A stretch of 64,000 nt of DNA from Promethearchaeota archaeon (GTDB lineage: Archaea > Asgardarchaeota > Lokiarchaeia > Sigyniarchaeales > SOKP01), in NCBI GenBank assembly GCA_016839555.1, contig JAEOUA010000006.1:539912-603911 (forward strand), in the 5' to 3' direction. The position numbers and the translations under genes were made by a program. The notes under the pieces are model-generated. The model had not been told where the DNA came from. It saw only the letters and a program-made list of their open reading frames with translations, and searched no databases. Below, one piece after another: positions 15,344 through 25,012 of the stretch. Positions within the stretch are counted from its first letter, which is position 1, and every line of letters starts with the position of its first letter.

Positions 15344-16441
15344 TTATATAAAAAGAAATGATAAAAAAAATAAAATTGTTGATAAAATAAAAGGATAAGT
15401 TAAATTATCATCAATTTCTAAATCAAAATAGTCTAAAATACCAATAATAAGAGCCCCGCTTAGAGGGAGAATGATAAATGCTACCATATTAAAAAAATAA
15501 TATGCTTTTAAAATTAATAAAATCAATACACCAGAAAAAAATGAAATGAATATTCCAGCAAAAAGTCCTATATATGTTTTATTACTCTTTTTTTTACCTA
15601 AAGGTTGGATTTTTTTTTTCCCCAATGTTCTTCCAATTAAATTGGAAGCGATATCTCCAAAGATTGACATAACCATTGAAGTGGATATAACTATTGGTCC
15701 AAGAGGGTGATATAATCCATATAGGATAATAATTGAAAAGCATCCAATTGCCATTGAAATTTGGGGGCCTAATCTCATATATAATTCTTTCTTTCTTAAT
15801 ATTTGATTAACAGGTTTTAATGGATATAATTTAGGTTTTAAGATTCTAATGAGATCTGCAGTTAATAATCCAAATAAAGAAATTGCAACGAGAAAGATAA
15901 CAAGGTATTGATTAAAAATCATATTCTGATGTTCATTTAAAAAAAGAGAATAAAACAAGTCTGAAAAACCCGAAGGTAAAAATTGTATCAAATCTATAAT
16001 AAGATCTTTAATCCAAGATCCGAGTGTAAAATAAAAAAGAATAATGCCTATAACAACCAAGTGAGAGATTTTTCTATAAATTTCATATTTTAGAGGTAAT
16101 ACATTAGATGCAGTTTGGAAAGCAGGTTCCATCTGGTCATTAGTCTTACTCAACAATTTCTTTTCTCGCAAAACTAAAAGAGAGAAAATGATAAGAAAAA
16201 AAGGGAAGAAAAAAATCATAGAAACATCAAAAGGAAACACAATAAATTGAGCTCTCGATAAATTAAAAATATTTACTAGTATTAAATTAACGGTAATTGA
16301 AATAAAGAGTATTAAGAAATTCACAAAATTATTTATAAAACTTCCTTTCATTCCCTTCTTTTTTGCCAAGATGGTAACATATAATATTAAGAAGCAATAG
16401 AAATAAAATACGCAAATAATGATAATTAGAGGGAAATTCAA
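15344..16441 (-). CDS. polyprenol/dolichol/phytol kinase family membrane protein (cytidylyltransferase fold)
   Basis: E..RK..H, GD.A...G...GK.K, NKT..G, DDNL..P motifs; multiple TM helices. Confidence 0.8.
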   Translation of the reverse strand: MNFPLIIIICVFYFYCFLILYVTILAKKKGMKGSFINNFVNFLILFISITVNLILVNIFNLSRAQFIVFPFDVSMIFFFPFFLIIFSLLVLREKKLLSKTNDQMEPAFQTASNVLPLKYEIYRKISHLVVIGIILFYFTLGSWIKDLIIDLIQFLPSGFSDLFYSLFLNEHQNMIFNQYLVIFLVAISLFGLLTADLIRILKPKLYPLKPVNQILRKKELYMRLGPQISMAIGCFSIIILYGLYHPLGPIVISTSMVMSIFGDIASNLIGRTLGKKKIQPLGKKKSNKTYIGLFAGIFISFFSGVLILLILKAYYFFNMVAFIILPLSGALIIGILDYFDLEIDDNLTYPFILSTILFFLSFLFI

Positions 16442-16532: not shown

Positions 16533-17936
16533 CTAAAATTGTGTTTCATCTATAACGGGCATGTCTGAGTCGTTAATTGATTCTTGTATTTTTTCATCAG
16601 ATAATTCATAGTTTTTCAAGTCTCCTGTCATATATTCCTTATAGGCTAATAGGTCAAAAAATCCGTGTCCACTGAAGTTAAATAAAATAATTTTTTCTTC
16701 GTTATTTTCCTTCGCCTTTAGAGCTTGATCGATTGCCTCTTTAATTGCATGATCTGTTTCAGGAGCAGGTAAGATACCCTCAGCTCTCGCAAATAAAAGC
16801 CCTGCTTTAATAACATCTAACTGATGATGCATTGATGCTTCCATAATATTATTATTATAGAGATTAGAAATAATAGGTGCTATTCCATGATATCTTAACC
16901 CTCCGGCATGAATAGGACTCGGAATAAAATTATGGCCCAGTGTATGCATTTTTATTATGGGGGCTTTTTTGGCAGTATCTCCATAATCCCAAGTATATTT
17001 TCCTTTACATACGCTTGGACATGCTGTTGGTTCAACTCCTATTATTTGTATATCAGGAGAAACTTCTCTTATTTTATCCCGAGCAAAAGGAAGCATTAAT
17101 CCAGAAAAATTCGAACCTCCACCCATGCATCCAATTACGATATCTGGTGCCTCTATACCTGCTTTTTTAAGCTGAACTTGAGCTTCTTGGCCTACGATGG
17201 TTTGATGAAGACAAACAAAGTTAACAACACTTCCTAATGAATATCTAATTTTATCACTTCTTAAGCTATGCTCCACTGCTTCCGATATTGCGAGACCTAA
17301 ACTTCCTGGATGATTCGGGTCTTTTTCATAATATACCTTTCCCGATTCCGTGAATTTTGAGGGGGATGCGTGCACATCAGCCTTAAAAGATCTCATAAGA
17401 ATTTTTCTTCCTGGTTTTTGCTGAAAGCTTATCCTAACCATATAAACTGTACATTTTATGTCAAAGAGAGAACAGCCATATGAGAGACCAGATCCCCATT
17501 GGCCAGCTCCAGTTTCAGTTACCAATTCTTCAATTCCATCCATTTTAGCAAAATATGCTTGGGCAATTGCAGTATTAGGTTTATGTGAGCCTGTTGGAGA
17601 AACAGATTCATTCTTATAAAAGATTTTAATCTTATCTCCCTGCAATCCTAATTCTTTTTCCAAGTTTAATGCTCGATGGAGAGGAGTAGGTCTATAAATT
17701 TTTGCATATATTTCCCTTAACTGTTTTGGAATAGGAATAGTTGGTTCTTGTGAAACTTCCTGAATAACACATTCTTTGGGAAAAATAGCTGCCGCCATTT
17801 CAAATGGTGCTGGTTTTCCCGTCATAGGATTAATTAAGGGCGTCATTGGAGTGGGTAAATCTGGTAAAATATTTACCCATTCTTTCGGCACTTCATTAGG
17901 ATCTAATAAGATCCTTGCTTTAGAAAGATCCGTCAT
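16533..17936 (-). CDS. trpB2: tryptophan synthase beta chain 2 (TrpB2, stand-alone)
   Basis: RPTPL.RA, GSHKPNTA, TETGAGQWG, GGGSNF, IHAGGLRYHG, APE..HA, NFSGHG; no adjacent trpA. Confidence 0.93.
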   Translation of the reverse strand: MTDLSKARILLDPNEVPKEWVNILPDLPTPMTPLINPMTGKPAPFEMAAAIFPKECVIQEVSQEPTIPIPKQLREIYAKIYRPTPLHRALNLEKELGLQGDKIKIFYKNESVSPTGSHKPNTAIAQAYFAKMDGIEELVTETGAGQWGSGLSYGCSLFDIKCTVYMVRISFQQKPGRKILMRSFKADVHASPSKFTESGKVYYEKDPNHPGSLGLAISEAVEHSLRSDKIRYSLGSVVNFVCLHQTIVGQEAQVQLKKAGIEAPDIVIGCMGGGSNFSGLMLPFARDKIREVSPDIQIIGVEPTACPSVCKGKYTWDYGDTAKKAPIIKMHTLGHNFIPSPIHAGGLRYHGIAPIISNLYNNNIMEASMHHQLDVIKAGLLFARAEGILPAPETDHAIKEAIDQALKAKENNEEKIILFNFSGHGFFDLLAYKEYMTGDLKNYELSDEKIQESINDSDMPVIDETQF

Positions 17937-18020
17937 ATTATTTAACTCTTTTTTTTTATATATGTATCATTATATAATTGGAATTCAATTCTATTAATGC
18001 ATTTAAAAAGTTATTTGGAT

Positions 18021-18029
18021 AAAAAAAAA
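18021..18029 (-). terminator. U9 tract between the Trp leader ORF and trpB2, candidate conditional terminator
   Basis: A9 on the + strand, 41 nt after the leader stop codon; oligo-U tracts are typical archaeal terminators. Confidence 0.4.
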
Positions 18030-18069
18030 GTGTTTAACCCAAAAATATTAATAAGAATAGTCCAATGCA

Positions 18070-18132
18070 TTAGCGATTTTGCCAACGCCACGGCCACTGA
18101 GCATTCCAAAAAGATATTTTATTAATTGCCAT
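18070..18132 (-). CDS. putative Trp leader peptide MAINKISFWNAQWPWRWQNR (TrpL-like uORF)
   Basis: ATG at 18132, TAA ending at 18070, 4 TGG codons in 20; 133 nt upstream of trpB2 on the same strand; TATA-like TTTTTATA at about 18176-18183. Confidence 0.7.
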   Translation of the reverse strand: MAINKISFWNAQWPWRWQNR

Positions 18133-18329
18133 AATCTTATTTTTAAGGACTATTTAGTACCATTATTTTTCAAAATATAAAAAGTTAATTATTTCTTAGA
18201 AAATTGTAAAAGGAGAGATTCAATATAAATCAAAATGAACCTTGGGATTCATTATGGATAAAACACTAAAAAATCTTATAACTAACTTGAATTATAAAGA
18301 CTCTTAAGAATTTGGCCAAAAAAAAAAGA

Positions 18330-18728
18330 TTACTCAAAAATTTTCATGATTTTTTTAGCAGCTACTCTCATAACTTTTACGGTTTTCATCAAGGTCTCAA
18401 TTTCAGTTCCAGCACAAACAATAACTAATCTCTCTGCATTAGTTATTACAATATAACCATCACGCCCCCTTACTATTACCTCATTAAGATGTTCTTGAAA
18501 AAGTTGTTCAATTGTAGATCTTCCAGTCATGAGAAGAGCTGAGGCTAGTCCACAGAATTGATCTCCATCAACATGATATTGGGGAAGAGCAGAAAAGGCG
18601 ATTTGATATCCCTCTCTAGAAACAAGAGCTAATGCCTCAATATCTGCATTTGAAGTTATAAAAGTTATTTGAGGGCTTATTTTTTCAATATCCTCATCAG
18701 TTAAATTTAGATCAGTCCCAAATTCCAT
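18330..18728 (-). CDS. roadblock/LC7 domain protein
   Basis: ALALVSREGYQIA..., GLASALL, EVIVRGRDGYIVI pattern; GGAGGGTGG SD before the ATG at 18728. Confidence 0.85.
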   Translation of the reverse strand: MEFGTDLNLTDEDIEKISPQITFITSNADIEALALVSREGYQIAFSALPQYHVDGDQFCGLASALLMTGRSTIEQLFQEHLNEVIVRGRDGYIVITNAERLVIVCAGTEIETLMKTVKVMRVAAKKIMKIFE

Positions 18729-18892
18729 GATTTGGACCACCCTCCATTTTATAAATTATATTTATTAATTTCATTTTAATAATATTTTCTAATTATAATC
18801 TTATAAAAAATAATCTTATAAAAAAGTTAAATATTTTATTTTCTATATTGTTATTAATTATTTAATGCCCAAAAAAGAAATTATATAAAAAA

Positions 18893-21211
18893 ATGATTAC
18901 TACAAGAGAGTCTATTAATTATCAATATTCTTTAGTATTCGGTTATCAGAGCCCGAATGATAAAAATATCTCTGTCGGTGACATCATTAGCCCGGGAGTA
19001 TTAACAGGGAATCTAGTAAAAGAACTTTCAGTAGATGTTGTTAATTTTTTCACTCAATATAATGCGATGTTAAGAGATTACAGTGGTTCAGAATTATTTT
19101 TTGTTGAATTTGAACTAAAAGATATCAGTTTTAGGAAAAATTTAACAATGATTTACCCAAAATCTATGATATTAGTTCCGGGAAATTATAAGGAATGTGA
19201 AAGCTTAATGCTCGCATTGAAACCAGAAAGAGGTTATTTGAATATTCATAAATCTAATAAAGCTATCAATAAAATAAGTCGCTTATTTTTTGAAGTAGAA
19301 GATTTTGCTAATCGTCCAGAATTAAATCAAAAAGAAAAAGAAAAATTGTTTAACAAATTTGCTTCAAGATTCAGTAAAAAATTATATGGGGGACTTATTG
19401 AAAGTAAGTGGAATAAAAAATTAATTGGAATCTCAGAATCACTTCCTACAGAAAAAGAATTTTTAAAACAATATGGAAAATTAAAATCAAAAATTGATGT
19501 TTCTTGGTATAAAAAACCTCTTGAAATATCTTTATCAGATATAAAATATGGAAAACTTAAAGATCCATATGAAGGAAAAACTGGTTTTGAACACATTAAG
19601 TTTAATATAGCAACACCAACAGCAGGATTTATTACTGCTAAAACTCTAAAATTAGGTTCTAATCTCTTAAATTTAGCTAATATCGGTACAATTGATAAAT
19701 TCCAAGAACAATTGGTTAAATTTATTATTAAAAAAATTAAAAAGGAGGATCTCTCTACTATAAATGAAGAGAAATCAGAGAAGTGGTTAATTTCAAGAAT
19801 AGAAAACTATTTGAATCATTTTGAAGAGAAAATGAAGGAATATTTCGACTATTTTGAGGAATATTTAATTAGTGGAATTAAAGGTAATATAGACTATGTT
19901 TTAGAAGAATTTAAAAAATTTATTTTAAAGAAACAATCTTCATCTAAAAACGATTTTTCTGAACTCCATAAAATAACAGTTCAATTTATAAAACAAATAA
20001 TTTTAAAAAAGGAAGATGTAATTGCCAATGATTTAAGATCCGCATACAATTATTTTTCTGAACTATTTACACAAAATATACAAATTATCATTAAAACTCT
20101 TCCTAAATTTTTAATCATAAGACATTTAAAAAATAAAACGAAATTATTAATTGAAAATTTAAGAATTGCATTTGAGAAAGAGGAGGATCCAGCAAAAAGA
20201 GTGGGCAATAAATTTATTGATACATTTTATGAATTTATACTAAAAAAGATGAAGGATTTTCCTCCAATATACTCAAATAATTTAAATATCAATGAAGAAC
20301 AACTTTCTCTTGAATTTTTTATTTTAGTGAAAGAAAAATTAGATAAATTTTTTGAAAAAATACAGATTGAAGGAAGCGATATCCTATCATTTGCAGAATT
20401 TGAAATAAAGAATGATGAAAAAATTATAAAAAATTATAGTAGTAAATTTAAAAAATTTACAGAAGAGATTCATTTTCTATTAAGTTATATCTTAAGATAT
20501 TCCACAATTAATAGATTTATAAAAGAAAAAAATGATAAAGATATTTCTGATCCAATTTCGTTTTCCTCAAAATTTCACAGATTTTTGGAGAAGAGATTAG
20601 CCGGTATCAATCTCATTTGCAAATCTTATATCTTAGAGTGGATAAATGAATATTCAGAACTCTTTTCTAAGAGGACGGAAGATAAAAAATGGACCTTAAA
20701 TGATATTTATAATGATTTTATTACTTATCTTCAAGAAAAAGAATCATTAGCTCATGATCCCGAAAAATTTTTTACAATTTTAGATACTAATTTAGCTAAA
20801 GAAGCAGAAGAGAGCGAAAAAATTTCATTATTAAAGTTTTTAGATAAATATCTTTATTATAAAGATGTAGCAGGGCAATTCCCTGAATATTTAAGAAAGA
20901 AATTTAATAAAGAGATTCAAAACTTGATTCATTCCTCGGAAAAATCAAAGCCTCTAGCTTATCTTACAAAAAATGGAGAAAAAAATTTTTTTAATTATAT
21001 AAGAGAAACTGAACTTAAATATTATTCAAAATTAATACCGATTCCTAAAACACTAATCCTAAAGCATTTATTAACCCATGAAGAAAAAGAACAATTTAAA
21101 GGGGATTTATTTCAAGTATTTGAATTTAATTTAATGGGAGAGGATAAATTCATTATAAATTTAAAAGATAATTTTAAAGAAATTTTTAGAGAGTGGATTA
21201 AAGCATTATGA
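18893..21211 (+). CDS. large hypothetical protein, mostly helical
   Basis: 772-aa ORF; ATGA overlap with the next gene. Confidence 0.75.
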   Translation: MITTRESINYQYSLVFGYQSPNDKNISVGDIISPGVLTGNLVKELSVDVVNFFTQYNAMLRDYSGSELFFVEFELKDISFRKNLTMIYPKSMILVPGNYKECESLMLALKPERGYLNIHKSNKAINKISRLFFEVEDFANRPELNQKEKEKLFNKFASRFSKKLYGGLIESKWNKKLIGISESLPTEKEFLKQYGKLKSKIDVSWYKKPLEISLSDIKYGKLKDPYEGKTGFEHIKFNIATPTAGFITAKTLKLGSNLLNLANIGTIDKFQEQLVKFIIKKIKKEDLSTINEEKSEKWLISRIENYLNHFEEKMKEYFDYFEEYLISGIKGNIDYVLEEFKKFILKKQSSSKNDFSELHKITVQFIKQIILKKEDVIANDLRSAYNYFSELFTQNIQIIIKTLPKFLIIRHLKNKTKLLIENLRIAFEKEEDPAKRVGNKFIDTFYEFILKKMKDFPPIYSNNLNINEEQLSLEFFILVKEKLDKFFEKIQIEGSDILSFAEFEIKNDEKIIKNYSSKFKKFTEEIHFLLSYILRYSTINRFIKEKNDKDISDPISFSSKFHRFLEKRLAGINLICKSYILEWINEYSELFSKRTEDKKWTLNDIYNDFITYLQEKESLAHDPEKFFTILDTNLAKEAEESEKISLLKFLDKYLYYKDVAGQFPEYLRKKFNKEIQNLIHSSEKSKPLAYLTKNGEKNFFNYIRETELKYYSKLIPIPKTLILKHLLTHEEKEQFKGDLFQVFEFNLMGEDKFIINLKDNFKEIFREWIKAL

Positions 21212-24937: not shown

Positions 24938-25012
24938 CGGACCCGGCAGGATTCGAACCTGCGACTTTCGGATTAGAAGTCCGACGCCCTATCCGGGCTA
25001 GGCTACGGGTCC
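24938..25012 (-). tRNA. tRNA-Arg(TCT)
   Basis: GGACCCG/CGGGTCC acceptor stem, TCGGA-CTTCTAA-TCCGA anticodon arm, GCAGG-TTCGAAT-CCTGC T arm; CCA not encoded. Confidence 0.96.

Follow-up and report, generated by a model that had tools for sequence, protein, structure and literature searches.

A candidate ribosome-read tryptophan leader upstream of trpB2, conserved within a family of Promethearchaeia

Leader-peptide attenuation is a textbook form of gene control that needs ribosomes following RNA polymerase, and it is, to our knowledge, regarded as a bacterial invention. For tryptophan, the closest described system is the trpL leader of Escherichia coli and Salmonella (RF00513). Ribosome-based leaders without a classical antiterminator include the E. 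coli pyrBI leader and the stabilization of ermC-type mRNA by a stalled ribosome. In archaea, trp genes including trpB2 are controlled by TrpY-type repressors (Methanothermobacter), which are DNA-binding proteins acting at operators. The poly-Cys leaderless attenuator open reading frames (ORFs) of mycobacteria are reportedly another ribosome-based system lacking a classical antiterminator (bioRxiv 10.1101/834739). Here we describe a leader rich in Trp codons that precedes trpB2 in a 64,000-nt stretch of DNA (contig C5:539912–603911; hereafter the window, whose positions are used below) from a 3.74-Mb metagenome-assembled genome (MAG) of a Promethearchaeota archaeon that has a GC content of 29.6% and is 92% complete. 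We consider it likely that positions 18186–17937 on the minus strand comprise the promoter and the ~220-nt 5′ leader of the trpB2 mRNA and act as a ribosome-read, cis-regulatory Trp sensor. A preliminary description of this DNA knew of no established TrpL-type attenuator in Asgard archaea, and our full-text literature searches likewise found no description of an archaeal leader-peptide attenuator.

The layout of the leader, as we read it, would be the 5′ arm of a helix P1, an upstream ORF (uORF) with a hairpin P2, the 3′ arm of P1 closing the ORF, a U-rich tract, a hairpin P3 and then trpB2. It resembles trpL in that a short ORF with clustered Trp codons near its stop lies upstream of Trp-biosynthesis genes, a hairpin carries the Trp codons in one strand, a U-rich tract follows downstream and the same element occurs on more than one trp transcription unit. 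It differs in that no sequence or structure homology to trpL is detectable (no Rfam match), the ORF has 3–6 Trp codons instead of two and is enclosed by the long-range clamp helix P1, an extra conserved hairpin (P3) stands before the gene, no 2:3 antiterminator pairing can be detected, and the host is an archaeon, with a polymerase for which oligo(dT) or FttA, not a hairpin terminator, brings about termination. The best reading of these comparisons is that the leader is analogous, not homologous, to bacterial trpL and represents bacterial-type amino-acid attenuation in archaea. With the pyrBI, ermC-type and poly-Cys leaders it would share a stalled or closely following ribosome as the effector, as proposed here, and a run of amino-acid codons placed in a very short ORF where an operon mRNA begins; those systems are bacterial. 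Like the Bacillus subtilis TRAP leader and the T-box, it is a structured trp leader with repeated triplets that would sense Trp status at the RNA level, but its repeats are in-frame UGG codons in a conserved ORF, and neither a TRAP gene nor a T-box match was found. Unlike in TrpY control, what is conserved in it is an ORF together with RNA helices that covary.

The features of the window for which positions are given here are all on the minus strand. The gene 3′ of the leader, trpB2 (16533–17936; 467 codons), encodes a TrpB-like pyridoxal phosphate enzyme whose sequence matches NF009057 (640 bits; cut-off, 366) and TIGR01415 (585 bits) and contains a PALP domain; it is presumed to be under the control of the leader. 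The uORF (18070–18132; MAINKISFWNAQWPWRWQNR), read directly from the sequence, has 20 codons, of which 9, 13, 15 and 17 encode Trp (18108–18106, 18096–18094, 18090–18088 and 18084–18082), so that the four UGG triplets fall within the last nine codons. A spacer of 133 nt (18069–17937) separates its stop from the trpB2 ATG (17936) on the same strand. The GC content is 0.32–0.34 over 18000–18149, compared with 0.16–0.22 on either side. The region upstream of the leader is occupied by a Roadblock/LC7 gene, and MAGs bearing the title Promethearchaeota archaeon or Promethearchaeia archaeon contain the nearest TrpB2 loci; together, these are consistent with an Asgard-type host. Point-by-point re-reading thus agreed with the preliminary description as to the Trp-rich ORF and its distance from the gene, the identity of trpB2, the GC-rich patch, the TATA-like element and T9 tract on either side of the ORF (both located below) and the Asgard-type host. 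Its estimate that four Trp codons would occur by chance at about 1e-5 did not hold: at least four Trp codons are present in 30 of the 41,255 ATG-started ORFs of 8–45 codons in the genome (four of the 30 have 20 codons or fewer), which puts the odds per ORF nearer to 1e-3 to 1e-4. As judged from the sequences compared, it is conservation across relatives, not the Trp count, that rules out chance.

The features of the uORF are kept in the 47 leaders compared. The start codon is ATG in 45 of them, the usual length is 15–24 codons (mode, 17–18), the number of Trp codons is 3–6, and the stop follows the last Trp codon by 0–3 codons in 44. The identity of the stop varies (TAA in 30, TAG in 12 and TGA in 5). 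Successive TGG triplets are without exception 3, 6, 9 or 12 nt apart, all multiples of three. A C-terminal W-x-W-P-W-R-W-stop motif is kept, with Pro and Arg near the stop, and the residues between the Trp codons are variable (R, Q, P, A, H, S, L and C). With its kept ATG, a stop of fixed position and variable identity, and codon-phased Trp triplets, the uORF shows signs of being read as codons, and we infer that it is translated.

The leader is tied to Trp-synthesis genes across the family. TrpB2 is present in 57 of 61 related genomes, and 18 of the 30 loci fetched have, 110–185 nt upstream of TrpB2, a small ORF with W-x-W-x-W(-x-W) at its end; four further trpB2 loci of the same family also have a Trp-rich uORF. 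A covariance model, R1 (120 positions; 12 bp of P1 and 5 bp of P2, with a hand-given structure), was searched against 151 genomes of the order with a threshold of E ≤ 0.01. It matched 95 of 131 genomes of the Promethearchaeia (Lokiarchaeia-type) family to which the window belongs and none of 19 genomes of three sister families. Among the best 30 matches, 26 lie ~100–125 nt before trpB2 and the rest before a TrpD-like gene. Four genomes with two copies were inspected, and in each, one leader precedes trpB2 and the other a trpD-trpC-trpF-trpB-trpA-trpE-trpG operon, all seven genes of which were verified with Pfam; as in the window, membrane-protein, pyrI and NFACT genes come after trpB2 in these genomes. 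In genomes of two genera whose inspected trpB2 locus has no uORF, the leader is on the trp operon instead. In comparative terms, restriction of the leader to two kinds of Trp-synthesis transcription unit is what classically marks a Trp-specific cis-regulator. The comparison that the preliminary description had suggested, a survey for Trp-rich uORFs before orthologous trpB2 genes, thus found them in most genomes of the family, with the leader also before the trp operon.

Three helices are conserved in the leader RNA, and covariation is strong in P1 and P3. P1 joins the first bases of the ORF, or those immediately before it, to a segment 6–22 nt past the stop; in this genome, its 5′ arm (AAUAGUCC; 18147–18154) pairs with 18063–18056 in the minimum free energy (MFE) fold. 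In 50 leaders, P1 has 12 pairs, 11 of them with both partners changed, and the share of paired cells is 86.6%, compared with 26–50% in slid controls; the covariation score is 0.233, compared with 0.130 in shuffles (reached in 0/500). Since this alignment had been fitted to R1, tests blind to structure were added: the complementarity of P1 arms from the same locus was equaled in 0/5000 permutations of loci, and a duplex-energy screen gave z = −8.1. P2 (18067–18088; MFE fold; 5′ strand, GCGUUGGC; 3′ strand, GCUAAUGC) has the last Trp-Arg-Trp codons as its 5′ strand (18088–18081) and includes the stop codon in its 3′ strand (18074–18067). It is 84% paired in the 50 leaders, and compensatory variants were seen by eye (GGCGUU/AACGCC, GUGUUUU/AAAACAC, AUUGGC/GCCAAU and GGCUU/AAGCC). 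In the alignments, a post-stop motif, UGCAUUGG (segment D), runs into the 3′ arm of P1, GGACUAUU (18063–18056), together covering 18056–18069, and CAUUGG is near-invariant after the stop (alignments A1, A2 and A5). P3 (17960–18004) is a long imperfect hairpin of 17 bp with an AUUG-AAUUC-CAAU apex and a 3-nt bulge on the 3′ side. It stands ~40 nt upstream of the gene, is shared by the trpB2 and trpD leaders, and has a single copy in this genome. On alignment A6, made with MAFFT only, 85.4% of P3 cells are paired (slid, 27–54%) and both partners vary in 13 of 17 pairs; the covariation score of 0.273 compares with 0.146 (0/500). RNAalifold on sequence-only MAFFT alignments found no structure, because the P1 arms and P2 stand in shifted columns; the hand-given structure and the covariance model solved this.

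A further candidate helix, P0 (18089–18133), pairs UAUGGC (18133–18128) with GCCGUG in the Trp run (18094–18089) in the MFE fold. The homologous segments are 77.8% paired in the 50 leaders (slid, 22–57%), and no covariation beyond shuffles was found among them. It is plausible, as modeled, that P0 sequesters the uORF AUG in the folded RNA. In the tail after P3, the base of the P3 3′ strand (ACACAU) can alternatively pair with a downstream AUGUG repeat, giving a small hairpin, P4, for which some relatives show compensatory variants (CAUCA/UGAUG and CAUUUUU/AAAAAUG). The equivalent in the window (17964–17934) is CAUAU (17964–17960), which is complementary to AUAUG including the trpB2 start codon (17938–17934). 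A P4-type pairing at this place would be a possible translational layer.

Upstream of the uORF, a B recognition element (BRE)/TATA-like element (AACTTTTTATA; 18176–18186), read directly from the sequence and conserved in position in relatives, contains the TATA-like TTTTTATA (18183–18176), which ends 43 nt before the uORF ATG. In about 50 leaders, TATA-like hexamers peak 36–41 nt upstream of the model start. From the TATA-to-start spacing generally usual in archaea, leader transcription is predicted to begin at about 18155, where the 5′ arm of P1 starts. Downstream of P1, a U-rich, G-poor linker (18005–18055) is the candidate termination zone; it contains T5 (18045–18041), T9 (18029–18021) and T5 (18009–18005). 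In 44 leaders, the linker is 51–54% T and 6–7% G, and a T run of at least 5 is present in 32, usually within 17 nt of P1, compared with an A run of at least 5 in 8 of the same segments and a T run of at least 5 in 44% of AT-rich background windows. By these counts, the U-rich tract directly after P1 is strand-specific. In this genome, 18043–18037 can form a local hairpin with 18020–18014 with the T9 in its loop; as a terminator it was rejected, since it is not conserved (mean z, −0.9; below −1.5 in 14 of 47 leaders). Oligo(dT) tracts are termination sites for archaeal RNA polymerase, and FttA favors U-rich nascent RNA (PMC13681488). The best match to aCPSF1/FttA (TIGR03675) in the MAG is a 479-codon ORF (L200; G000:C11:151791–153092, −) that covers positions 174–629 only, namely, the beta-CASP part without the KH region, at 278 bits, below the cut-off of 580; full-length FttA was not detected with TIGR03675 in the 92%-complete genome.

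The trp operon that carries the second leader in relatives appears to have been lost here. We found neither indole-3-glycerol phosphate synthase nor a canonical trpB in this genome at its 92% completeness, and trpA was found as a C-terminal fragment only (G000:C12:156644–156847, −); thus, TrpB2 is the sole Trp-forming enzyme found. R1 and the hidden Markov models matched only the trpB2 leader and one decayed relic, which lies 2.2 kb from the trpA fragment (L130:4328–4443, i.e., G000:C12:154328–154443, −; R1, 26 bits). Its Trp-rich ORF (MTYFFNETWFWAWRWHE; C12:154374–154427) is among the four ORFs of at most 20 codons with at least four Trp codons mentioned above, and its P1 and P2 pairs are broken. 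The 11-mer TGGCGTTGGCA is common to this ORF and the uORF of the window and occurs only at these two places in the genome. The decayed leader is directly followed by a convergent gene whose homologue in a relative lies just beyond trpG and a gelsolin-like gene; owing to this synteny with the end of the operon in the relative, we regard the ORF as the decayed leader of a deleted trp operon. Together with the trpA fragment and the genes not found, the relic indicates that trpDCFBAEG was deleted in this lineage. That the leader with its gene is intact and the leader without its operon is decayed is further evidence of function.

The comparison directly supports a conserved ORF, the helices P1, P2 and P3, a U-rich tract and an exclusive tie to Trp-synthesis genes; from these, we propose that stalling would be the signal and premature termination the output. 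A ribosome would load on the nascent leader. When charged tRNA-Trp is ample, it would reach the stop and leave, the leader would fold with P0 and P2 inside P1, and most transcripts would end in the U-rich tract before trpB2. When Trp-tRNA is scarce, the ribosome would stall on the UGG run and hold P2, and probably P0 too, open, and more polymerases, or more stable or translatable transcripts, would reach trpB2. P2 sets the Trp codons in a helix that the ribosome must open. The proposal agrees with the preliminary description, which had suggested that stalling at the Trp codons would control termination at the U tract or through aCPSF1/FttA. Of the features that define ribosome-read attenuators as a functional class, a short conserved ORF rich in the codons of the regulated amino acid is present before the corresponding biosynthesis genes, and the regulatory codons overlap a helix that depends on ribosome position, namely, the Trp-Arg-Trp codons in P2, which has the stop in its loop or its 3′ strand; mutually exclusive terminator and antiterminator structures were not found. 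Given a sensor role, termination at the U-rich tract is our leading guess for the output, at somewhat less than an even chance, and the rest falls to mRNA stabilization by the stalled ribosome against 5′–3′ decay or to an effect on translation involving P3 and the small hairpin. A more specific proposal, which we hold tentatively and with more doubt than belief, is that this is a ribosome-read leader peptide of Asgard archaea whose output does not pass through a bacterial-style terminator/antiterminator switch: a pioneer ribosome, stalled or released, would decide whether an uncoupled RNA polymerase terminates at the U-rich tract (intrinsically or through a beta-CASP factor), or would protect the mRNA from 5′–3′ decay.

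Several results weigh against an attenuator read by ribosomes and acting through termination. The single-sequence fold of the leader is not unusually stable (z = −1.26), no Shine-Dalgarno sequence is obvious before the uORF, and the N-terminal uORF codons show no period-3 conservation. The last result fits a leader peptide and adds no proof of translation; together with the variable residues between the Trp codons, it is what one would expect of a peptide in which nothing but the frame and the Trp codons is important. Intrinsic termination in archaea is not known to depend on hairpins (PMC13681488), and bacterial-type terminators are not enriched in the window (6 found, compared with 6.3 expected). 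When duplex energies were calculated for all 36 pairs of nine leader segments in their own locus and in permuted loci, only P1 and P3 were significant, and no covarying alternative pairing that could act as an antiterminator emerged. Melting of P1 by a stalled ribosome found no support: constraint folding gave a P1 occupancy of 0.59 in the free state and 0.56 in the stalled state, so that a ribosome modeled on the Trp codons leaves P1 thermodynamically unaffected. As for candidate antiterminators, the post-stop motif with the 3′ half of P3 (z = −2.7) failed multiple testing, and the pairing of post-stop CAUUGGA with the P3 apex UCCAAU is kept without compensatory changes.

The same pieces could be read differently. 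If the UGG repeats and helices were the binding site of a trans-acting factor, either a TRAP-like protein or, in a T-box-like manner, uncharged tRNA-Trp whose CCA anticodon or CCA end pairs with UGG, the ORF would be incidental. The regular spacing and near-invariance of the UGG triplets, the invariance, beyond coding need, of a CAG between two of them, and the lack of an antiterminator helix would suit such a site, as would the resemblance of the post-stop UUGGA and the P3 apex UCCAAU to a codon/anticodon-loop pair, for which the own-versus-permuted signal is weak (z = −2.7, as above) and the pairing of segment D with P3 lacks compensatory changes. We nevertheless judge this unlikely, because an in-frame ATG and a nearby stop of variable identity are present in 44–45 of 47 leaders and the repeats are spaced by multiples of three (3–12 nt), which is required for codons and not for a protein site. 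TRAP in particular binds (G/U)AG repeats with 2–3-nt spacers, unlike UGG at multiples of 3 nt, and no homologue of PF02081 was found in the 92%-complete genome, in a search that matched only B. subtilis among 14 control genomes. As to the T-box, cmscan of Rfam over 17000–19500 at E ≤ 10 gave no match to T-box (RF00230) or Trp_leader (RF00513), and its sole match was an unrelated, sub-threshold snoZ5. A related idea, that the nascent peptide itself arrests the ribosome by sensing free tryptophan in the exit tunnel, as TnaC does, and not the supply of Trp-tRNA, draws on the conserved W-x-W-P-W-R-W-stop, which is reminiscent of arrest peptides such as TnaC (PMC8429421). This seems to us very improbable: the residues between the Trp codons vary, the N-terminus is unconstrained, TnaC-type logic induces at high Trp, which is the wrong sign for trpB2 and trpDCFBAEG, and three to six Trp codons are the classic signature of sensing tRNA supply.

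Other explanations separate the ORF from trpB2. A functional Trp-rich micropeptide might merely be co-located with the gene, or trpB2 might have its own promoter in the spacer, downstream of a separate small transcript. TATA-like strings do occur in the AT-rich spacer, and the preliminary description had pointed to one nearer trpB2; such a string is present (TTATATAA, 17977–17970), but it lies in the covarying 3′ strand of P3, where the pairing is conserved and the TATA-likeness, as seen from the P3 3′ strands of two relatives (CAACACGGUAGCG in L099 and CAAUAGGCUAAUG in L011), is not, which argues against a promoter. A stable small RNA could also result if the leader transcript stopped at the U tract, and action in trans has been reported for attenuator RNAs and peptides of bacteria (PMC7298713 and PMC7968998). 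Set against this, the peptide is poorly conserved outside the Trp codons, the element is confined to sites at a fixed distance upstream of Trp-synthesis genes, and loss of the trp operon in this genome was accompanied by decay of the operon's leader; we find the co-location and own-promoter explanations quite implausible. That the ORF arose by chance in an AT-rich spacer could appeal to the 30 of 41,255 small ORFs of the genome with at least four Trp codons, but this explanation, which we consider negligible, is already refuted by the conservation in about 100 genomes of the ORF and its flanking helices, which covary and are tied to trp genes. We therefore retain, as the likely interpretation, a ribosome-read Trp sensor.

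Natural variants of the leader exist in relatives. In two of them (L095 and L118), the uORF lacks its usual stop and runs on for nine more codons (…WRKRTLFSLV and …WRGDTALSLE, respectively), crossing the P2 3′ strand and CAUUGG; the L095 stop is a UAA in the P1 3′ arm. These variants shift the site of ribosome termination. In a sister genus, the trpB2 loci of three genomes (L018, L012 and L023) have partly deleted leaders, and P3 is kept in all three. L018 also keeps the P2 3′ strand, CAUUGG and the P1 3′ arm, with the Trp-codon run and the ORF gone. The full leader is present in congeneric L020, L090 and L096, so these are natural deletion variants.

Trp-rich uORFs before trpB2 are also present in some other families of the phylum, among them some of the three sister families in which R1 had no match and some that are more distant. 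In f21 (L189 and L191), the peptide reads LS(L/F)(P/S)NFSWHPW(R/H)SWRWQ, and in f9 (L187) it ends in …FDGWPWRGPWQ; examples from L189, L191, L187, L041, L045, L049 and L053 include LSFSNFSWHPWHSWRWQ, …FDGWPWRGPWQ and …NFWNLWQWWRL. R1 had no match in the f2 and f4 genomes (L041, L045, L049 and L053), and the f9 and f21 loci lay outside that search. From these sequences, the principle of a Trp-rich uORF seems wider than the R1 RNA family. A genome-wide search with the pattern TGGNNNTGGNNNTGGNNNTGG was uninformative, because coding repeats, Gly-rich ones among them, dominated its matches. Between the leader and trpD, some relatives have a conserved ORF of 80–90 codons, 0–1 nt from the trpD start (L127:749–988, +; L128:7597–7845, −; L098:1640–1909, +); it has the motif …LINKK..IIFGPEKSKTAKFI..NY.DVYK… and no Pfam family at E ≤ 0.01.

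Downstream of trpB2 in the window, after 91 nt, a gene at 15344–16441 encodes a membrane protein of 365 amino acids and may be co-transcribed with trpB2. The protein has no Pfam or NCBIfam match, and its homologues follow trpB2 in several relatives; its neighbors in a protein language model are Promethearchaeota clusters partly annotated as CTP_transf_1 or dolichol kinase (score, 0.92). Elsewhere in the window, GGTTCGAATCCTGCCGGGTC (24940–24959), which came from the terminator scan, resembles the T-arm and acceptor end of a tRNA, and a tRNA gene is probably located there.

For annotation, the leader marks trpB2 as a Trp-regulated gene belonging to the same regulon as trpDCFBAEG. The loss of the operon together with the retention of trpB2 and its sensor points to indole salvage in this lineage. 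More broadly, the conserved Trp leader of Promethearchaeia is a concrete, mutable element in the archaeal lineage nearest to eukaryotes, and it can be used to test transcription–translation coupling, archaeal termination by oligo-U or FttA, and the sensing of charged-tRNA supply. If a ribosome-read output without a terminator/antiterminator switch is true, the leader would represent a mechanistically new class of attenuation and would provide direct evidence of regulatory transcription–translation coupling in the closest prokaryotic relatives of eukaryotes.

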